In this document: piece by piece, positions 23,681-39,412 of the stretch
Position numbering within the stretch: the first letter of the stretch is position 1
Layout: each line of letters starts with the position of its first letter
From: Patescibacteria group bacterium
GTDB lineage: Bacteria; Patescibacteriota; Minisyncoccia; Phycocordibacterales; SBAW01
Assembly: GCA_028871115.1 (NCBI GenBank)
Contig: JAGWOD010000001.1
Coordinates: 4,736-68,735 of the forward strand
Length of the DNA: 64,000 bases
Direction of reading: 5' to 3'
Notes under the pieces: generated by a model
Seen by the model: only the letters and a program-made list of their open reading frames with translations
Databases searched by the model: none
Told to the model about the DNA's origin: nothing
Made by a program: the position numbers and the translations under genes

Positions 23681-24112
23681 TTGAAGTGGAACTAAGTTCT
23701 CGGGCGACTTAAAGTTGCTCTCTCGACATCTTCCAACCCATGAACCCAGAAAGGGCGAATTGTGAACCTAGGAGACTCGAGGAAACAGCGGCAGCAGCCA
23801 TTCTCAGTGACGCGCCGTCTTAAAAAAATCAGAGCAAGAGAGGTGAGGATTCCTTGCGAAGGATGTCCTATGAGGCGTGGTAATGAACCATGGCTCGACC
23901 TCGAACATTGCTGTCTGGCTGAGCATGTACGTCTCGATCCTGATCATCTGATATGTATGATCAGTCTCCGATTGCAAGAGATTCGGAGCGGGCGACTGAA
24001 TCCTGGCCAGACTATGACGTTCGCTACATAACGTAAAGGAGGAAAGAGTAACAAGCGCCGGTTAAACAGCCGGCGCTTTGCATTTCAACACTTTTTTGCT
24101 ATAGTAGGCAAC

Positions 24113-24340
24113 ATGGTCGTACGGATGAGACATACACGCGCGCATACCGGCAACCGCCGGAGCCATCATGCGCTCGCAAACCCCACTCTCGTAAAATGCG
24201 AGTGCGGGGCAATGCGTCGCAAGCACGTGGCGTGTCCTCAATGCGGCCGCTATCGCGGACGGGTGGTAATTGATGTCGCGGCAAAGGCAGCGGCAAAACA
24301 AGCTCGCCAGAAAGCCCGCGAGGGAGCGGAACAAAAGTAG
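24113..24340 (+). CDS. rpmF: 50S ribosomal protein L32 (zinc-ribbon type)
   Basis: RRSHHALANP...CECG...CPQCGRYRGRVV. TTGCTATAGT lies 7 nt upstream of the start. Confidence 0.8.
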   Translation: MVVRMRHTRAHTGNRRSHHALANPTLVKCECGAMRRKHVACPQCGRYRGRVVIDVAAKAAAKQARQKAREGAEQK

Positions 24341-24437: not shown

Positions 24438-25352
24438 ATGGCAAACAGGCACCTCTCACGCTCAGTCGTACTCCAGGCCCTTTTCGAGTGGGATTTTAAG
24501 TCTCTCACTAAAGAACAGGCGCAGGCGTGTCTTTCTCGTATTACCTCTGAATTTGCCTCCGGTGCCGCAGATACGGCGTTTATGGAAGAGCTCCTTGGAG
24601 GTGTTCTTTCTCGTCGGGGTGATCTCGATCTCGTTATTGAAAAGGCTGCTCCTGAGTGGCCACTTGAGCGCATTTCTCCTGTTGATCGGAATATTCTTAG
24701 GCTCGGCCTCTACGAGCTTCTTTTTTCTGATCGAAACAAAGTACCTGCCAAAGTTGCCATCAATGAAGCGATAGAGCTCGGTAAAGCCTATGGAGGTGAA
24801 AATAGTGGCCGCTTCGTTAACGGTGTTCTTGGCGCGGTGTACAAGGAGCTCGGAGAGCCAGGTAAAGATGAGGTTGGCAAAAGGCGCAAAGACATTCCGT
24901 ACGACCAGATGCCGGTGGAGTATCTCGGCGGAGCGGTAGTCTTTGCGCACCACCAAGGTGATGTCTATCTCGCGCTGGTGCACGATATCTTTGGCCACTG
25001 GACGCTTTCCAAAGGACGCATTGAACAAGGAGAGAATCTCGAGGAGGGGACGATACGGGAGATTAAAGAGGAAATAGGACTTTCTATAAAGATACTTTCC
25101 TCACTCGGAGAAAATGAGTACGTAGCAAGTGATCCAAAAGCTGGGAAAAAACGCAAACACGTCGCGTATTTCCTCGCGGAATCGCCTTTTGTCGATGTAA
25201 AGCTCGAAGAAGAAAAGGGGGGCCTCGACGAAGCCCGCTGGTTTCGTCTCAAAGATGCCCTTGAACTTAATTTCTACGAGGACATCCTGCCTATTGTCAC
25301 GAAAGCAGTACAGAATCTTACCGAAGGTTCAAAGAAGAAACATAAGAAATAA
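24438..25352 (+). CDS. nusB: NusB (transcription antitermination factor) fused to a C-terminal Nudix hydrolase domain
   Basis: Residues 1 to ~140 are NusB (RSVVLQALFEWDF...AINEAIELGKAYGGENSGRFVNGVLGAVYKE). Residues ~165-304 carry a Nudix box (GHWTLSKGRIEQGENLEEGTIREIKEEIGL). Confidence 0.8.
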   Translation: MANRHLSRSVVLQALFEWDFKSLTKEQAQACLSRITSEFASGAADTAFMEELLGGVLSRRGDLDLVIEKAAPEWPLERISPVDRNILRLGLYELLFSDRNKVPAKVAINEAIELGKAYGGENSGRFVNGVLGAVYKELGEPGKDEVGKRRKDIPYDQMPVEYLGGAVVFAHHQGDVYLALVHDIFGHWTLSKGRIEQGENLEEGTIREIKEEIGLSIKILSSLGENEYVASDPKAGKKRKHVAYFLAESPFVDVKLEEEKGGLDEARWFRLKDALELNFYEDILPIVTKAVQNLTEGSKKKHKK

Positions 25353-25353
25353 A

Positions 25354-26052
25354 ATGAGTGAGAAAAATTTCAGCGAATTCGCTCAAAAACTCAACCTAGT
25401 ATTTAAAGACGAAAGTCTCCTGCGACTTGCGTTTACCCATCGTTCATACCTCAATGAGCATCGTGAAGAGGCTCATCGCGGCCACAATGAGCGGCTTGAA
25501 TTCTTGGGTGATGCGGTGCTCGAACTTACCTCAACGCGCTTTCTCTACGATCGGTTTCCAACCCATCAGGAAGGCGATCTTACTGCCTATCGAGCGGCGC
25601 TCGTGAACGCTAATACGCTTTCGGAAGTTGCGGCACGCATTGGTATGAACGATTACCTCCTTCTCTCCAAGGGTGAAGCAAAGGATCTAGGCCGCGCCCG
25701 CCAGATACTTCTTGCCAATGCTTTTGAAGCTCTTATCGGAGCGGTTTACCTTGATCAGGGATATGACGGAGCCGAGCACTTCCTCTCAAGGTATCTTTTC
25801 CCAAAGATAGATGAGATCGTCAAAAAACGTCTTTGGCAGGATGCAAAGTCTGCCTTCCAGGAAAAAGCTCAGGAGCACGAAGGAGAGACTCCTACCTACG
25901 CTGTACTACGCGAGGAGGGACCGGACCATGACAAACAATTTGTCATGGGAGTATATGTCAGAAACGTGCTTGTGGCTGAAGGAGAGGGTCGTAGTAAGCA
26001 GGAAGCGGAACAAGAGGCCGCACGAGCGGGTCTTGAACGTAAAGGTTGGTAG
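25354..26052 (+). CDS. rnc: Ribonuclease III
   Basis: ERLEFLGDAVLEL signature plus a dsRBD. The ATG at 25354 sits 1 nt after the upstream stop, so the ORF-track extension from 25255 is rejected. Confidence 0.85.
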   Translation: MSEKNFSEFAQKLNLVFKDESLLRLAFTHRSYLNEHREEAHRGHNERLEFLGDAVLELTSTRFLYDRFPTHQEGDLTAYRAALVNANTLSEVAARIGMNDYLLLSKGEAKDLGRARQILLANAFEALIGAVYLDQGYDGAEHFLSRYLFPKIDEIVKKRLWQDAKSAFQEKAQEHEGETPTYAVLREEGPDHDKQFVMGVYVRNVLVAEGEGRSKQEAEQEAARAGLERKGW

Positions 26053-26093
26053 TTTCTCAATACCAGAGGCTTTTTCTTGTTACAATATCGGCA

Positions 26094-28334
26094 ATGCGTT
26101 TGAAAAGTATAGAGCTCTCTGGGTTTAAATCATTTGCCAAAAAAACTGAGCTCAAATTTGACTCCTCTATAACGGCCATTGTTGGTCCTAATGGATCAGG
26201 CAAAAGCAATATTGCCGAGGCATTCCGTTTTGTGTTGGGTGAGCAGTCTATGAAATCCATGCGCGGCAGGCGTGGCGAGGATCTCATCTGGAATGGTTCG
26301 CCTGCGATGGGACGGGCGGGAAGGGCCTCAGTACGATTAGTGCTCGACAATGCTGATCGAGTGCTCAATCTTGATTTCGACGAGGTGCAATTTGAACGCG
26401 TTGTCCATAGGGATGGCAGCAACGATTACCTTCTCAATGGGAGCACGGTACGCCTGCGGGATATCGCCGAGCTTCTGGCGCATGCAGGTATTGGATCATC
26501 TGGGCATCATATTATTTCGCAAGGTGAAGCTGACCGTATACTCAGCGCTTCTCCTCGCGATCGGCGCGAAATGATAGAGGACGCTCTCGGACTCACTGCA
26601 TATCTCTACAAACGAGAAGATGCGGAGCGAAAACTCGAAAAAGCGCAGGAGAATATGCGTGAAGTCGAAGCGTTGCGCCGCGAATTGGCACCACACTTGA
26701 AGTTTCTCTCAGGTCAGGTCAAAAAGATAGAAGAAGGGGAAAAACTTCGCGAGGAGCTTGCCAATGCCTACGTAGAATACCTGAAGCGCGAAAAACTCTA
26801 TCTTGTAGAGACAAAAGAAGCCCTTGCCGCTGATGAATCTAGCCCCAGCAAGGAGCGGCATGATATTGAGAACCGAATACAGAAATTACGGGATGGCCTT
26901 GCGAGTAAGGCAAAGAGCGATGAGAGCGCTCACGAACTCGTTCGCTTGGAGAAAGAAGGAAGCATAACGCGCGGGCAGCGCGAAGAGCTTACGCGTGAGA
27001 TTGGCCGCCTTGAAGGAGAGCTCATTGCTCGGGAATCGATTGCCAAGCGTTCAGAAGGCGCCACGATTCCCGCAAAAAAGGCTGCTGCATTTGCTGAGGA
27101 AATTGCTGCGGCACTTGAAGAGGCTAAGGAATTTGATCTACAAGCTCTCCAAAAGACTGTTGCTTCTCTTGTCCATCGTGTCCGTGAGTTTGCTCGTTCG
27201 ATACTGCATAGCGAAGGCGGAGAAGATACAGAATCACTTGGAGAGCTCAAAGAAAGAAAACAAAAACTTGAAAAGGAGTTGCACGATATCCAATCGCAAG
27301 AAGAAAGAAACCGCAGATCTGTCTCGAACTTGCGTGAAGACATAGAGTCGAAAAAAGATGCGTCGCGGCAGGCTGAGCGTGAGCTCTTTTCTGCTATGGC
27401 CCGCCGCAGTGAACTTGAGAGCATTCTTGCAGGGATTGCCACGCGGAAGGAAGCTTTGGCACGAGACGAAGAGCGTTTTAAAGAGGAGCTGCGTGAAGGG
27501 GGTGTCTTAATCGGCCGGGGGATATTGGGGTATGAATCATTTGAACTTGAGAGAGGCAAGGTGCAGACAAAGGAGTCTATTCTGGAGGATCGTTCGCAGC
27601 AGGAAGTTCGTCGTCGAAAGCTAGAGCGTCTCAAGATTCGACTTGAAGAAGCTGATACCTTGGGGGGCGCTGAAGTACTTAAGGAGCATCATGAAACAAG
27701 AGAGCGAGATGAATTTCTCGGACGTGAACTAAGTGACCTGCAAACATCGGCTGAATCTCTTCGTGCACTTATTGCCGAATTAACGGAGACGCTCGAGGGA
27801 CGCTTTGCTCAAGGTATTGAGACTATCACCCTTCAATTCAGCGAATTTTTTAAACTTATGTTCGGCGGGGGAGAGGCAAAGCTCTATATCGTGAAAGAGC
27901 ACAGAGTGCGTAGACAAGCATCCTCCGAAGCAGAATATGAAGAGGGGGAAGAAGACGGTGAAGATGATGCAGAGCTCGAAGAAGGAGTGGAAATCTCAGT
28001 CAATTTGCCCCACAAGCGTGTCAAAGGGCTCCATATGCTCTCCGGTGGGGAGCGAGCACTCACGTCAATCGCACTTATCTTTGCAATGAGCCAGGTAAAT
28101 CCGCCACCCTTTCTTATTCTTGATGAGACAGATGCGGCGCTTGATGAAGCGAACTCAAGGCGCTATGGCGATATGATAGAAACTCTCGCGCGCAAATCAC
28201 AGCTTATTTTGATAACGCATAACCGAGAAACCATGAGCCGGGCGGGGATTCTGTATGGTATTACGATGGGCAGCGAAGGTGTCTCGAAGCTTCTCTCGGT
28301 TCGGTTTGAAGAGGCTCTCAGCGTGGCAAAATAA
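26094..28334 (+). CDS. smc: Chromosome segregation protein SMC (shortened coiled coil, ~747 aa)
   Basis: Walker A (GPNGSGKSN), long coiled coil, signature LSGGERALTSIA, Walker B (ILDETDAALD). Confidence 0.85.
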   Translation: MRLKSIELSGFKSFAKKTELKFDSSITAIVGPNGSGKSNIAEAFRFVLGEQSMKSMRGRRGEDLIWNGSPAMGRAGRASVRLVLDNADRVLNLDFDEVQFERVVHRDGSNDYLLNGSTVRLRDIAELLAHAGIGSSGHHIISQGEADRILSASPRDRREMIEDALGLTAYLYKREDAERKLEKAQENMREVEALRRELAPHLKFLSGQVKKIEEGEKLREELANAYVEYLKREKLYLVETKEALAADESSPSKERHDIENRIQKLRDGLASKAKSDESAHELVRLEKEGSITRGQREELTREIGRLEGELIARESIAKRSEGATIPAKKAAAFAEEIAAALEEAKEFDLQALQKTVASLVHRVREFARSILHSEGGEDTESLGELKERKQKLEKELHDIQSQEERNRRSVSNLREDIESKKDASRQAERELFSAMARRSELESILAGIATRKEALARDEERFKEELREGGVLIGRGILGYESFELERGKVQTKESILEDRSQQEVRRRKLERLKIRLEEADTLGGAEVLKEHHETRERDEFLGRELSDLQTSAESLRALIAELTETLEGRFAQGIETITLQFSEFFKLMFGGGEAKLYIVKEHRVRRQASSEAEYEEGEEDGEDDAELEEGVEISVNLPHKRVKGLHMLSGGERALTSIALIFAMSQVNPPPFLILDETDAALDEANSRRYGDMIETLARKSQLILITHNRETMSRAGILYGITMGSEGVSKLLSVRFEEALSVAK

Positions 28335-32569: not shown

Positions 32570-35500
32570 ATGCGCGAACAAAAATTCTTCAAACGGCATA
32601 ACCCCTCTCGCGTCGCCACTCCCAATCTTGTGGCTGACCAAATCCGCTCCTTCGAGTGGCTCCTCAAGGAGGGCATCCGAGAGACTTTCAAAGAATTTAC
32701 ACCTATCAAAGACTATTCCGGTAAGAAATTCGATCTTGAGTTTTCTAAGATTGAGATCGGCGAGCCGAAATTTGACGAACACTACGCGAAAGACCAGAAA
32801 CTCACCTACGACGCGCCGATACGGGCTATCGTTCGACTCACGAATAAAACATCAGGCGAAAAGAAGGAGCAGGAGATATTTCTTGCGGATATCCCTGTAA
32901 TGACTCCGCACGGCACCTTCATTATAAACGGTGTCGAACGAGTCATTGTGCCGCAGCTTGCTCGCTCCTACGGTGTGTTCTTTACTGCTGAAGAACTTAA
33001 AGGAAAGAAGCATTTTGGTGCAAAGATTATTCCCGCACGCGGTGTTTGGATCGAAATAGAAGCGGATGCCGATGGCATGCTCTCTGTCCGCATCGATCGC
33101 AAGCGCAAGTTTCCAGCTATATCGCTTCTGCGCGTACTGGGTGCTCGTTATGATAGTGACCTCAAATCGCTTTTCAGCCACGCTTCCTATGAGAAACGCT
33201 GGGTAGAAGCTGCAATGGAGAAAGATCCTGCAAAAACTGTTGAAGAGGCTTACATAGAGATACATAAGCGATTGCGCGACGGAGATCTTGCTACTGCAAA
33301 AAATGCGCAAGACTATATAACTGCTCTCTTTAGTGAAGAGCGATACGATCTTTCCCCAGTAGGACGTTTCCGTTTCAACCAGCGCTTTGGAAAGTCATTG
33401 GGCGTTCAAGAACTTACCCGCAAAACCCTCAGTCTCGATGACGTAGTCACCACGCTGCGTCATTTGCTCATGCTCGAAAATACTCCCGACGCGATGGAAG
33501 ATAACATCGATCACCTCGGCTCCCGCCGCGTCCGCTACGTAGGAGAGACACTCCAGAGCCGTGTCCGTGTGGGACTCACTCACATGAAGCGCAACATCCA
33601 GGACCGTATGTCGACCATAGATGCGGAGGCTTCGCTTCCCGTCCAATTCGTCAATCCGCGCCCGCTTCAGGCCCGTATCAAAGAATTCTTCACCACCAAC
33701 CAGCTCTCTCAGTTCATGCAGCAGGAGAATGCACTTGCGGAGCTTGAGCATTTGCGTACCTTCTCAGCTCTTGGCCCTGGCGGTCTTACCCGTGAGCGCG
33801 CAGGTTTTGAGGTGCGCGATGTGCACCCTTCACACTACGGGCGCCTTTGCCCCATTCATACTCCAGAAGGTCCGAACATCGGACTCATTCTGCGTCTTTC
33901 GACGTTCGCACGTCTCAATGAGTTCGGCATGATAGAGACGCCTTACGCGAAAGTGGCCAATGGCACCGTGACGAACGAAATCATATATCTCAACGCTGCA
34001 GAGGAAGAAAATGAAAAGATAGCCCACGGCGCGACAGAACTTCATGGAGACGGCAGAATCGTCGAAGAGATGGTGGAAGTGCGCTTCAAGGGGGCTCCTG
34101 TACGCGTGCCTCGCGCCGAAGTCAAATATACGGATGTTTCTCCTCAACAGCCCTTCTCCATCGCGACATCAATGATTCCGTTTCTTGAGCATGATGATGC
34201 AAACCGAGCGCTCATGGGTTCAAACATGCAGAAACAGGCGATTCCCTGTCTCATTCCTGAAGCTCCGCTTGTTGCCACCGGCATGGAGGAAACTGCAGCA
34301 CATGATACGGGACGCTTAGTATTTGCTCTTGAGGGGGGCACGGTGGCGGAGGTTGATGGACGACACATTTCAGTAAAAAACGATAAAGGAAAAGAGACAA
34401 AATACCCTCTCATCAATTTTGTGCGTACCAACGGGTTCACGGCGCTCCATCATCGCCCTATCGTTTCTGTAGGAGAGAAGGTTAAAAAAGGACAACTTCT
34501 CGCTGATGCTTCCTCCACCGATGGAGGACAGCTTGCACTTGGACAAAACGTCATGGTGGCATTCATGACGTGGTCAGGTGCTAATTACGAGGATGCCATC
34601 ATTATTTCTGAGCGTCTCGTAAAAGACAGCAAATTTTCAACCATCAATATTGAGGAGTTTGTCTGCAACGTACGGGATACGAAGCTCGGAGCCGAGGAGA
34701 CAACGCACGACATACCCAATGTTTCAGAAACGAAGCTCCGTAACCTCGACGAGGAAGGCGTCGTACGCATCGGCTCAGAAGTCCGCCCTGGCGATATATT
34801 GGTTGGCAAGATAACACCCAAAGGCGAAACCCAACTCACGCCGGAAGAGCGGCTGTTGCGATCTATTTTCGGCGAGAAGGCCCGTGACGTGAAGGATTCA
34901 AGCCTCCGTATGGAGAACGGCAAACGAGGCCGGGTTATCGGAGTAAAAGTCTTTTCCCGAGAAGCAGGACATCAGCTTGAATCTGGCATACTCAAGCGCA
35001 TCCATATTGAAGTAGCACAACTGCGAGCGGTCTCCGTAGGAGATAAGCTTGCAGGCCGCCACGGCAACAAGGGCGTCATTTCCCGTATTCTTCCTGAAGA
35101 AGATATGCCCTACACCTCCGATGGTCGACCTGTCGATGTCATTTTGACACCGCTTGGTGTTCCTTCGCGTATGAATCTCGGACAGATTCTCGAGCTCCAT
35201 CTTGGACTCGCGGCCAATACCCTCAAGTACCAGGCAATCTGCCCTCCGTTTGCAGGAGCAACTGAAGAGGAAATTCGCAGCGAACTCAAGCAAGCTGGCT
35301 TCAATGAAAATGGGAAAATGAGGCTCTTTGACGGCCGGACGGGCGAGCAATTTGAACAGGAGATCGCCGTTGGATACATGTATATCCTCAAGCTCCATCA
35401 TATGGTCGAGGATAAGATCCACATGCGCTCTATCGGTCCTTATTCCCTCATCACGCAACAGCCTCTCGGCGGCAAGGCTCAAGGCGGCGGACAGCGCTTT

Positions 35501-38500
35501 GGAGAAATGGAAGTATGGGCACTTCTTGGCTATGGCGCTGCCTATACGCTGCGCGAGATGCTCACGGTGAAATCCGACGACATCATGGGTCGTTCAGCGG
35601 CATTCGACTCTCTTGTGCGCGGGGAACGTATTGCACACCACTACGCTCCAGCATCATTCAACGTGCTCTTGCATACCTTGCGTGGTCTCGCGCTTGATGT
35701 TGAGCTCCTCCGGGGGACTGCACCTATCCGTAGCGGCAAGAAAACTCCTGGAGCAGAGATCGGAGATTTTGACGCAGTGCGTATAAGACCTGCCTCTCCT
35801 GAGAGAATTGGCGAATGGTCCTATGGAGAAGTTACAAAGCCTGAAACTATCAACTACCGCACCCAGCGTCCGGAGAAGAACTCCCTCTTTGATGAGAAGA
35901 TATTCGGGCCTGAGAAAGACTACGAATGCTATTGCGGAAAATATCGAGGCATACGCTACAAGGGCATTGTCTGCGAGAAATGCGGTGTTGAGCTCACTCG
36001 GGCTATTGTGCGTCGCGAGCGTATGGGGCACGTCGATCTCGCAGTCCCTGTCGCGCATGTGTGGTTCTTGCGTGGCATTCCGTCGCGACTCGCCATGACT
36101 CTGGGTATCTCTGCCGCCGATCTTGAAAAGGTCGCCTATTTTGCGGGGTATATCATCATCTCGGTCAATGAAAAGGAACGTGAGCGTATCAGCAAAGAGC
36201 TTGAGAGCGAATACAAGACCAAGCTCAAGGCGCTTCAGGACGAGAAATCGAAGGAGAAGATCAAAGAGCTTTTTCTTGAAGCCAAGCGCGATATCGATGC
36301 ACTGCGGATCGGTACAGTTCTCGACGAGGCTCGATATCACCGCTACGCCATAAAATATGGTGCTGCGTTCGAAGCGGGAATTGGTGCAGAGGCACTTTAC
36401 AATTTCTGCAAAGGCCTCGATCTCAAAATGATGGAGCGTGCTACCGCTAAGGCCTTCGAGGAGGCTGGTTCTGCCGAACGCGAGAAATTGAGCAAACGAC
36501 TCTCACTCATGCGCGGCATGATACGAGCCAACGTGCGTCCCGAATGGATGTTCCTCACCCGCATTCCTATTATTCCGCCGGGCTTGCGCCCCATGGTGGC
36601 ACTTGATGGTGGCCGCCACGCGACCTCGGATGTTAATGATCTTTATCGTCGTGTCATCAATCGCAACAATCGTCTCAAGAAGCTCATAGATATTCATGCG
36701 CCTGATGTAATTCTGCGCAATGAAAAACGAATCCTCCAGGAGGCAGTAGATGCTCTTATTGATAATTCAATCCGCCATGGTGGAGCGGCGTATTCCGCGA
36801 CCACACAGGCTCGCACCCGTCCGCTGAAGTCTCTCTCAGATAACCTCAAAGGCAAGCACGGCCTCTTCCGACAAAACCTTCTCGGCAAGCGAGTCGATTA
36901 CTCTGGCCGATCGGTCATTGTGGTAGGCCCTGAACTCAAACTCAACCAGTGCGGTCTTCCCAAACACATGGCGCTTGAACTCTTCCGTCCCTTTATCATC
37001 GGCAAACTTCTTGAGAGAGAACTTGCCTACAATATTCGTGGTGCTGGACGTCTTATTGATGAAGGGGTACCTGAGGTGTGGGCTATTCTTGAAGATGTCA
37101 TAAAGGATAAGTACGTGCTTCTCAACCGCGCGCCTACCCTCCACCGCTTGGGTATTCAGGCCTTCCAGCCGGTTCTTATTGAAGGCAACGCGATACAGCT
37201 TCACCCGCTTGTATGTCCTGCTTTTAACGCTGACTTCGATGGTGACCAGATGGCAGTACACGTGCCACTTTCGCCTGAAGCACAAGCCGAAGCACGTGAA
37301 ATTATGGCGGCTCCTAAGAACATCCTCAAGCCCGGAGATGGCCAGCCGGTAGTTGCCTCCAAACTTCTCGATATTTTGCTCGGTGCTTATTGGATGACCA
37401 AGGAAGTGGAAAAAGCTAAAGGGGAGGGAATGGCCTTCTCAAGCCCTAATGCTGCCATATTGGCCTACGATTACGGTGCTGTTGGCTTCCAAGCAAAGAT
37501 CAAAGTCCTTCCTTCGGAGAAAGAGAAGTACGCACAGTTTGGGAATTCTCTTTTTGAGACGACCGTAGGACGCCTGCTCTTCAATACGGTATTCCCCTCG
37601 GATTATCCCTATGTAAACGCGGCCATTGATAAGAAAGGCCTTGCTCGGCTCGTTGATGATCTTATCGCCCGGTACGGTCTCGAGAGAATACCTGAGATCA
37701 TGGATCGCATTAAGGCGTTCGGATTTCGCTACGTTACACAGTCGGGTATTACCTGGTCCCTCGACGATATTCGTGTGCCGAAGGAGAAGCGGGAAATTGT
37801 CGCTGCCGCACAGAAGCGATCCGATGAAATCGTCAAACATTGGGAAGAAGGCCTTCTCTCCCAGGAAGAGCGCTACCGCATGAATATTGAGGTCTGGCAC
37901 GCGGCAAAGGCTGAAGTCGAGAAGCTCATACCTGCGACACTTCCAATTAACGGCTCAGTCTCCGACATGTTGCGCTCCGGTGCTCGCGGTTCTATTGCCC
38001 AGGTAACGCAAATGGCGGGCATGAAGGGTCTTATTGCTTCTCCAACTGGCGAGGCTATCGAATTTCCGATCACCACCTCCATGAAAGAGGGTCTTTCGCC
38101 GATTGAATACTTCATTACCACCCACGGCTCTCGAAAAGGACTCACTGATACTGCTCTTCAAACTGCAAAAGCTGGGTATCTCACTCGACGTTTGTTTGAC
38201 GTGGCGCAAGACATTGTCGTAGGGGAGGAAGACTGCGGAACTAGTGAAGGTCTCGCTGTGCGCCGCGAGAGCGCATCAGGAATCGGTACCTTCCTCGCAA
38301 GCAATATTCGAGGACGTTTCCTTGCTGGAGATGTCGCGGACGCGAAGGGCACTATTCTCTTCAAGAAAGGTCATTTTACGACAGCGCCAGATGCAAAAAA
38401 GATTGAGGAATCGGGAGCCCCCTCCGTATATGTTCGCTCCCCAGTCGGATGTAAATCACAACGAGGCATTTGTATTCACTGCTATGGAGCAGATCTTGCA

Positions 38501-39412
38501 ACCTGGGAGCCGGTCTCCCTTGGAGAAGCGGTAGGCACAGTTGCCGCCCAAGCTATCGGTGAACCCGGCACTCAACTCACTATGAACGTCAAGCATGCTG
38601 GCGGTTCAGCGTCGGTCGGAGGCGACATCACCCAGGGTCTCCCTCGTGTTGAGGAGATATTTGAACGCCGCACCCCCCGCAACCCTGCTGCTGTGGCTGC
38701 TGTAGCGGGCGAAGTGATAGAAATACGCGAGGACGGAAAAGAGAAAACCATCGTGGTTCTTCCTGATATTGAGAGCAAAGGAAAAGGCAAGAAGGCCGGT
38801 TCGGTTGAATACCCGGTCAACATACGCCGCACCCCACTTATAAAAATGGGAGATCGAGTCGAACGGGGCCAGCTTCTCACTGACGGATCAGCGGATCTTT
38901 CCGAACTTTTCCAATATGCAGGACGAGAAAAGACACTCGACTATATCTTGCGGGAAGTCTCCCGAATATACGAGCTTCAGGGCGTTACGATATCAGTCAA
39001 ACATATTGAAGTCATTGCTCGTCAGATGTTTAGCCGTATGCGTATAACCGAACCGGGAAATACGGAATTCTCTTCCGGTGATATTGCGGGCGAAGTTGAG
39101 CTCACGGCCGAAAACGCTGAAACGTCCGGTGAAAAAGCCAAAGCAGAGCCTCTCATCATGGGTATTCTCGAAGTCTCGCTTTCTCGTGCGAGCTTCCTCT
39201 CAGCCGCTTCGTTCCAGAACACGACCCGTATGCTCATCAAGGCGTCAGTTTACGGAGCGATAGACTATCTCCATGGCCTCAAAGAGAACGTCATCATCGG
39301 TCGACTTATCCCAGCTGGCACCGGGTACCGGGGTTCGTCGAAATCGGCAATAGTAGCAAAGTACGCACCTATCCCGACTGAAGCTATCCGCAAAGAGCGT
39401 GAAATCGCTTAG
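32570..39412 (+). CDS. rpoBC: Fused DNA-directed RNA polymerase beta-beta' subunit (RpoB-RpoC single polypeptide, 2280 aa)
   Basis: N-terminal ~1045 aa are RpoB (through [13 protein letters not shown]). A short linker (~35711-35765) follows. The RpoC N-terminus then runs in frame ([22 protein letters not shown]...[22 protein letters not shown]...NADFDGD). No stop or frameshift is present. Confidence 0.9.

Follow-up and report, generated by a model that had tools for sequence, protein, structure and literature searches.

NusB is among the most conserved and best-studied transcription factors of bacteria and is treated as a single-domain adaptor. The described proteins (TIGR01951/PF01029; Escherichia coli, Thermotoga maritima and Aquifex aeolicus) consist of one seven-helix domain of about 140 residues. 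The subject of this report is a NusB of a larger kind, encoded on the + strand of a 64-kb stretch of DNA from a Patescibacteria group bacterium (contig JAGWOD010000001.1), which is called "the window" below. It has the same fold as canonical NusB, a conserved aromatic residue at the interface with ribosomal protein S10, conserved residues of the boxA U8 pocket and the same locus, but it carries a C-terminal extension of 160 residues that consists of a linker and a Nudix domain.

The closest architectural precedents are RsmB and NrtR, neither of which is equivalent to the fusion. In RsmB (also called Sun), the methyltransferase that makes 5-methylcytosine 967 of 16S ribosomal RNA (rRNA), an RNA-binding domain of the NusB fold is placed N-terminal to a domain that enzymatically modifies rRNA, and the NusB part of the fusion matches RsmB models (E=6e-16, 58 bits against a cut-off of 319). 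However, the enzyme domain of RsmB is an S-adenosylmethionine-dependent methyltransferase, of which there is none here, and its N-terminal domain is a paralogue of NusB, whereas the fusion is the nusB orthologue. In NrtR a Nudix domain is fused to a nucleic-acid-binding module and serves to bind an effector rather than to catalyze, which parallels those members of the fusion family that have a degenerate Nudix box. The Nudix domain of NrtR is N-terminal, however, its partner is a winged-helix DNA-binding domain and its ligand is ADP-ribose, and the box of the protein described here is not degenerate.

The Nudix half most resembles the hydrolases of diadenosine polyphosphates (ApnA), namely NUDT2, the Caenorhabditis elegans enzyme, aq_158, Ndx1, CT771 and Rv2985, with 29-34% identity and template modelling (TM) scores of up to 0.88. 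It shares with them the HWTxxKG motif, the specificity tyrosine that follows the Nudix box, the lysine at the position of Lys89 of NUDT2, the second stacking aromatic residue and the canonical box itself. These hydrolases stand alone as enzymes (in Rv2985/MutT1 the C-terminal domain is a different one), whereas the domain is fused to NusB here, and most of the diverged members of the fusion family have lost catalytic glutamates. RppH (NudH) belongs to the same broad Nudix branch, and its substrates are RNAs with a 5' triphosphate or an Np4A cap, the same chemistry as is proposed below, but its models score far below cut-off, its structural match is distant and it is not tethered to a transcription factor. 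The NusB-Nudix architecture is undescribed in the full-text literature that was searched, including a review of the Nudix clan, and public annotation labels the fusion proteins just "NusB", missing the second domain.

Organization of the fused gene

The fusion is encoded by one continuous open reading frame for 304 residues that runs from an ATG to a TAA with no frameshift or stop, the domain junction included. Its parts are as follows.

24438..25352, + strand: nusB::nudix fusion gene, a single open reading frame with Pfam NusB and NUDIX domains; an identical protein is present in NCBI
24438..24857, + strand: NusB domain, residues 1-140, all-helical (TIGR01951, PDB matches, helices of the AlphaFold2 (AF2) model)
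24858..24911, + strand: inter-domain linker, residues 141-158; the ELGEPGKDE motif (residues 137-145) spans the end of NusB and the start of the linker
24912..25349, + strand: Nudix domain (residues 159-297) plus C-terminal helix, together residues 159-304, of the Ap4A-hydrolase type (Pfam, Foldseek, phmmer, BLASTP)
24993..25013, + strand: motif G186-H-W-T-L-S-K192, corresponding by alignment to HHWTPPK of NUDT2 (P1-phosphate site: His37, Lys42)
25014..25082, + strand: Nudix box G193-x5-E199-x7-R207-E208-I-K-E211-E212-I-G214-L215, by direct reading an exact fit to GX5EX7REUXEEXGU

Both domains are recovered by Pfam, NusB over residues 7-136 (E=3.9e-35) and NUDIX (PF00293) over residues 182-282 (E=3.1e-15; 56.8 bits against a cut-off of 21.1). 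The NCBIfam equivalog TIGR01951 "nusB" matches residues 4-137 with 124.8 bits, above its cut-off of 88.35. This agrees with a preliminary description of the locus, made from the sequence alone, in which the first ~140 residues were recognized as NusB and a Nudix domain with a canonical box was seen in the same reading frame, with the junction at 24850-24910. The box string quoted in that description does contain the box, but starts seven residues too early, at G186 instead of G193. A frameshift or stop at the junction, which had been considered as a possible flaw, is absent; independent assemblies stand in for read support in this respect. The identical protein in NCBI is labelled [quoted passage not shown].

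Distribution and age of the fusion

The species-level scan covered one genome per GTDB species, and the best 80 loci were fetched. At least 600 stretches were matched, and a relative of the fusion protein is encoded in at least 565 species-representative genomes. In the 80 best loci the match is colinear across the junction, extending from query residue 1 to about residue 295 except where it is cut by a contig end, and 73 intact fusion reading frames were found in the fetched loci. Both Pfam domains occur in all of the 120 best clusters (69-81% identity), and thousands of homologues have the same NusB-Nudix architecture. When representatives at 50% identity were searched exhaustively with HMMER, 56 full-length fusion clusters were obtained. 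The 54 of these that had good coverage were aligned and constitute the deep set, which reaches down to 27% identity.

The related loci span Nomura-, Kaiser-, Zambryski-, Vogel-, Ryan- and Niyogibacteria as well as Paceibacterota, and an Adlerbacteria record is found among the close homologues. The fusion belongs to the Parcubacteria group (Paceibacteria) of the Patescibacteria, a class of tiny bacteria that are uncultured, in which it occurs in many lineages. Because it is present in so many species-representative genomes of so many lineages of this group, the fusion is ancient and clade-defining.

The names attached to some records require comment. In many records the label "Saccharibacteria" looks like a placeholder name. 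One fusion protein with 74% identity (P0013) bears the NCBI label "Acetobacteraceae bacterium"; it probably comes from a mis-binned Patescibacteria contig and would then be no true occurrence outside the group.

Natural pairs of separate nusB and nudix genes were sought as evidence of a recent fusion, and no true split was found among the candidates. In one locus (L085, 542-1459, GCA_013565675.1) an in-frame TAA at the codon of the conserved Tyr135 leads to separate NusB and Nudix gene calls; the interruption reflects either a nonsense mutation or an error in sequencing rather than genes that are naturally separate. Two other apparent splits are due to a contig edge (L084) and to a masked run of N (L071). 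Two variants that seem longer than the rest (L003 and L025) result from upstream in-frame starts in mechanically called reading frames.

The NusB half

The stand-alone NusB proteins of sister lineages have 140-144 residues and are 47-53% identical to the N-terminal half of the fusion. In two loci of this kind (L081 and L083) the gene order is rpmF - nusB - rnc, with a stand-alone nusB that overlaps rnc, and the fusion occupies the same rpmF-[nusB]-rnc slot in about 70 loci. Since plain nusB holds this position in the sister lineages, the fusion gene is, by sequence and locus, the nusB orthologue of the organism. For the same reason the linkage of nusB to rnc predates the fusion, and the Nudix module was inserted between the two genes. 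No second NusB or Nudix gene is found in the window.

For the NusB half, phmmer ranks T. maritima NusB first in the PDB (E=2.5e-21), ahead of the E. coli and Aquifex proteins. Foldseek pairs the model with T. maritima NusB (1tzv; TM score 0.83, root-mean-square deviation 1.8) and with Aquifex NusB (3r2d; TM score 0.86). AF2 predicts seven helices for this half, with a predicted local distance difference test (pLDDT) value above 90.

In a phmmer alignment to E. coli NusB (1ey1), F16 corresponds to Y18, D83 to E81, N122 to D118 and F126 to F122. In the E. coli protein Y18 is buried in the interface with NusE (S10), while E81 and F122 lie in the pocket for U8 of boxA (PMC3177189). An asparagine at the position of D118, as found here, is what the nusB101 (D118N) mutant carries (PMC3177189). 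F16 is invariant in 16 close homologues; in a deep alignment of 75 sequences, the conservation of D83 and of F126 reaches 90% or more. Judged by these residues the NusB half looks fully functional and would be expected to bind S10 and boxA.

The window contains neither an rRNA operon nor an rRNA leader, and the 80 fetched loci contain no rRNA gene. The boxA-like decamer TGYTCTTTRA has no exact match in the window and none in an obvious regulatory position near the operon. With at most one mismatch it occurs 31 times in the window, against 17.9 +/- 3.9 expected from shuffled sequences; codon or amino-acid composition may be the reason for the surplus.

The Nudix half and its pocket

The best relatives of solved structure by sequence are the Ap6A hydrolase Ndx1 of Thermus (phmmer, E=8e-10 over the whole Nudix domain), the Ap4A hydrolase of Aquifex, CT771 of Chlamydia, human NUDT2 and the Ap4A hydrolase of C. 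elegans. A Foldseek comparison of the AF2 model with the PDB places the Aquifex Ap4A hydrolase (3i7u, aq_158) at the top, with a TM score of 0.88, a root-mean-square deviation of 2.1 Å and 29% identity. It is followed by Rv2985/MutT1, Ndx1, CT771 and the C. elegans and human Ap4A hydrolases, with BdRppH at rank 44. The Foldseek probability is 1.00 for many Nudix structures, and the Nudix domain of NrtR (3gz8) is among the neighbours.

The curated-family labels RppH, NudC, MutT and MutT1 were rejected, as all of them score far under their cut-offs; the RppH models (PRK00714 variants) give 17.7-29.9 bits against cut-offs of 116-241 (29.9 against 118). By its sequence relationships the domain lies in the ApnA-hydrolase branch but in no named family. 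The preliminary description had suggested nucleotides, alarmones or the NAD cap as substrates. The nearest relatives are ApnA hydrolases and neither NudC, which acts on NAD caps, nor the known (p)ppGpp hydrolases, and sequence alone assigns the domain no substrate.

The pocket can be compared residue by residue with that of NUDT2, to which BLASTP finds 34% identity over 107 residues (the NUDT2 query was checked and is 100% identical to 3u53_A). The segment G186-H-W-T-L-S-K192-G pairs with H36-H-W-T-P-P-K42-G of NUDT2. The equivalent residues are H187 and His37, K192 and Lys42, Y228 and Tyr82, K240 and Lys89, Y280 and Phe128, and D282 and Glu130. In NUDT2 the sulphate in the P1 site is coordinated by the histidine of the HHW motif, Lys42 and Tyr82; Lys89 is the counterpart of the sulphate-coordinating Lys94 of the Plasmodium enzyme; and the adenine is sandwiched by Tyr82 and Phe128, with its amino group contacted by Glu130 (PMC4734340). 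The histidine is printed there as "His32" and is taken here as His37 of the HHW motif. Tyr82 is also the specificity tyrosine of ApnA hydrolases, Tyr87 in the numbering of 1XSC (PMC5389931). Its counterpart Y228 is invariant in 74 species-level sequences. The other P1-phosphate and stacking positions, K192, K240 and Y280, are conserved as well, while position 187 varies (H, Y, K or R).

One free-standing homologue of the Nudix domain was found (P0261; L082, 5001-5453). It has 150 residues, 43% identity and a canonical box. Its surroundings resemble a mobile element or phage, with a weak integrase match, a DNA methylase and a faint Phage_rep_O (Rep_O) match. A phage origin of the domain was considered and rejected: IMG/VR viral contigs gave generic Nudix proteins at about 30% identity and no close kin.

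Decay of the catalytic box and retention of the pocket

The state of the box was scored at the five positions E199, R207, E208, E211 and E212. All five residues are kept in 111 of 120 close homologues, in 31 of 73 species-level representatives (48-70% identity) and in 9 of 54 representatives of the deep clusters (27-59% identity). E208 is lost most frequently, with K, V, I or A in its place. Its equivalent in NUDT2 is E58, the residue replaced in the E58A structure 4ijx; the structure 1xsa has the same substitution. When 150 fusion proteins are placed on a neighbour-joining tree, at least 26 changes of box state are needed, compared with 47 +/- 3 when the labels are shuffled, showing that the losses are many and independent and yet structured by clade.

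The pocket behaves differently from the box. The box is degenerate in 89 of 129 diverged relatives. Within these 89 proteins W188 is retained in 85, K192 in 86, Y228 in 80 (with phenylalanine in five more), K240 in 70 (with arginine in 12 more), Y280 in 83 and D282 in 79; H187 is not conserved. The columns of the Nudix half that are at least 90% conserved in the 75-sequence alignment are G165, W188, T189, K192, Y244, W268 and Y280, none of which is a catalytic residue.

From its retention in 111 of 120 close homologues, the catalytic box is under purifying selection in the clade of the source genome. Because the pocket residues persist while the catalytic glutamates are lost, the role common to the family is likely to be binding, and the property selected throughout is probably the binding of a nucleotide polyphosphate. 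Hydrolysis is probably maintained by selection only in some clades, that of the source genome among them. The coupling of a hydrolase to antitermination, as first suggested for this locus, is thus supported only in part: it is compatible with the intact box of this protein and most of its close homologues, but probably does not extend to the family. Likewise the loss of catalytic glutamates, which had been named as a potential objection, does not count against this protein or its close clade, most of which keeps the box, but does apply to the family overall.

A variation of the box loop was also seen. Many relatives (among them P0018, P0026, L001 and L003) have an insertion of five residues in the first loop of the Nudix box (GKIGDSPEIANE...), in the region of residues 193-199, which makes the spacing G-x10-E instead of G-x5-E; the remainder of the box is kept.

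The linker and the predicted arrangement of the domains

The motif ELGEPGKDE (residues 137-145; 24846-24872) is nearly invariant in 74 species-level fusions and is absent from the stand-alone NusB proteins of sister lineages. The pLDDT of residues 141-150 is about 50. The motif may be a docking peptide for a partner.

When 16 close sequences were used, AF2 produced two confident domains with a predicted TM score (pTM) of 0.48. With 75 diverse sequences the mean pLDDT was 92.1 and the pTM 0.76, and just residues 145-149 fell below 50. The rise in pTM with the deeper alignment points to a fixed two-domain unit and suggests that, in the predicted structure, the Nudix domain packs in a defined position against NusB.

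Proposed function of the fusion

Architecture, orthology, kinship of the domains, differential conservation and predicted fold are matters of observation or computation; the function of the fusion is what we infer from them. In the model that is preferred here, tentatively and with a little less than even confidence, the protein would work as a usual NusB to which a Nudix domain has been added that holds an adenine 5'-polyphosphate, preferably the 5' end of the leader RNA. An Ap4A-hydrolase-type Nudix domain was inserted between nusB and rnc and joined to the C-terminus of NusB. The NusB half would pair with S10 and bind boxA on the leader of the nascent rRNA. Fixed against NusB, the Nudix half would hold an adenine-nucleotide 5'-polyphosphate in its NUDT2-like pocket, and the preferred ligand would be the 5'-terminal pppA or NpnA end of the same leader RNA, which would then be gripped at two points, at boxA and at its 5' end. 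In the clades with a full box, including that of the source genome, the 5' polyphosphate or cap would be clipped to a monophosphate, and the clipped end would feed the processing and recycling centred on RNase III, which is encoded next door. In the lineages that lack the catalytic glutamates the domain would only bind. The binding of a ligand in the pocket, the identity of the ligand, the catalytic activity of this copy and the link to RNase III are all conditional parts of the proposal.

The 5' end of the leader is favoured as the ligand because NusB already sits on that RNA, because Nudix enzymes of the ApnA branch act on such ends, because a version that only binds would still serve to hold the RNA at a second point, and because the gene is embedded among RNA-processing genes (rnc and rnr). 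NUDT2 itself converts RNA with a 5' triphosphate to RNA with a 5' monophosphate (PMC8616924). The close spacing of the fusion and rnc also speaks for the proposal.

Several points weigh against this proposal. The ligand is deduced from the homology of the pocket residues, into which a free nucleotide would fit equally well. None of the NCBIfam Nudix equivalogs reaches its cut-off (the best are MutT1, 31 against 475 bits, and NudC, 30.6 against 158). Neither the window nor the 80 loci contain an rRNA leader that would give the geometry between the 5' end and boxA. RNase III cleavage itself yields 5'-monophosphate ends, so that removal of the triphosphate is not obviously needed for rRNA maturation. 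As a global figure, the pTM confirms neither the interface between NusB and Nudix in the predicted structure nor the direction in which the pocket faces. Furthermore, the C-terminus of NusB is situated close to the S10 interface and to the 3' side of boxA, not towards the 5' side of the RNA (PMC3177189).

The most far-reaching form of the proposal is stated with reserve and is, in our judgement, improbable. In this form the Nudix domain would act during transcription, both reading and erasing the 5' end of the rRNA. The domain would be held at RNA polymerase through NusB, S10 and boxA, would capture a 5'-pppA or Np4A end and would loop the leader; proteins with an intact box would decap or dephosphorylate that end, and those with a dead box would clamp it. 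If true, this would be a bacterial counterpart of a cap-binding or decapping factor inside the antitermination complex.

Of the alternatives, the one that survives best has the Nudix domain as a sensor of a small molecule, a reading that appears possible but rather unlikely. The domain would bind free Ap4A or another ApnA, ATP or an alarmone and thereby alter the binding of NusB to S10 or boxA, or its retention in the complex. The synthesis of rRNA would follow the nucleotide or stress state of the cell, much as NrtR senses ADP-ribose through a catalytically dead Nudix domain; in clades whose box is intact, the signal would be degraded as well. The persistence of pocket residues beyond that of catalytic residues is what such a sensor would show, the NrtR domain is among the structural neighbours, and the rigid packing of the domains, as predicted, would permit allostery. 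Nudix domains that regulate without being enzymes form a recognized class (PMC5389931). On the other hand, nothing points to a particular ligand, no allosteric regulation of NusB is known, and a pure sensor would have no need of the box that nearly all close homologues keep. Sequence data cannot separate the sensor from the binding of a 5' end.

A structural adaptor is less likely still. The Nudix fold would here be a contact for protein or for the RNA backbone in an antitermination complex specific to the Candidate Phyla Radiation (CPR), and nucleotide binding would be irrelevant. SuhB, a protein with an enzyme fold in the rrn antitermination complex of E. coli, is a precedent. The repeated loss of catalytic residues agrees with such a role, and so does ELGEPGKDE, which combines high conservation with low predicted confidence and resembles a partner-binding peptide. 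However, the residues that persist (K192, Y228, K240, Y280 and D282) are the phosphate-binding and adenine-stacking positions of NUDT2, and a pure scaffold is not expected to preserve pocket residues, nor does it account for the catalytic box kept in the clade of the source genome.

It is very unlikely that the fusion is incidental, that is, that a housekeeping hydrolase for the cleaning of ApnA or nucleoside triphosphates was joined to NusB by the loss of a stop codon and that the independent halves are merely co-expressed. The box of this protein is canonical, the domain is nearest to housekeeping Ap4A hydrolases and a free-standing homologue with a canonical box exists, all of which would fit. 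However, an enzyme with a housekeeping role would be expected either to preserve its catalytic residues or to vanish, so the long retention of the domain while these residues decay and the pocket residues stay counts against this explanation. The conserved linker, the fixed packing seen in the predicted structure and the failure to find a natural split form among the candidates argue in the same direction.

An artefact of assembly or sequencing can be dismissed with near certainty, since hundreds of independent assemblies, drawn from different studies and samples, carry the same continuous reading frame, with identities of 27-100%.

Gene neighbourhood

The genes around the fusion form a conserved cluster, of which the following members lie in the window next to it.

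24113..24340, + strand: rpmF (ribosomal protein L32), first gene of the conserved cluster (Pfam Ribosomal_L32p, E=3e-14)
25354..26052, + strand: rnc (RNase III; Pfam Ribonucleas_3_3, Ribonuclease_3 and dsrm)
26046..28334, + strand: SMC-like gene downstream of rnc (probable start M at 26094)

These coordinates agree with the order rpmF-nusB-rnc-smc, with the fusion directly upstream of rnc, that had been described at the outset. The ATG of rnc lies one base past the stop codon of the fusion. A promoter-like site precedes rpmF at 24077-24105, identified by consensus match only. An RNase HII gene is found upstream of the cluster in the window, and an RNase R gene downstream, on the opposite strand. 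The fetched related loci show, with hardly an exception, dnaE on the opposite strand and then rnhB - rpmF - nusB::nudix - rnc - smc: rpmF is upstream of the fusion in almost every one, and in 71 loci rnc comes next, separated from the fusion by a median of 17 nucleotides.

The SMC-like protein encoded 3' of rnc has about 750 residues, and its relatives in about 60 loci have 710-830. A typical bacterial SMC has about 1,180 residues. Because the short length is constant over these loci, it is a feature of the clade and not a truncation. Elsewhere in the window (32570-39412, + strand) there is a reading frame of 2280 codons that contains all RpoB domains (residues 19-1047) followed by all RpoC domains (residues 1067-2165) and looks like a fused rpoB-rpoC gene. 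Such fusions are known in Helicobacter and Wolbachia.

Implications

In a large and poorly understood bacterial radiation, the sole recognizable NusB appears from its sequence to be permanently linked to a domain that would bind nucleotide polyphosphates. This would physically tie rRNA antitermination to the chemistry of RNA 5' ends (triphosphates and NpnN caps) or to signals of the ApnA type. The cellular targets of ApnA-type molecules have been an open question for decades. With intact-box and dead-box clades that have a conserved pocket in common, the fusion family is a natural experiment in the passage from an enzyme to a binding module.

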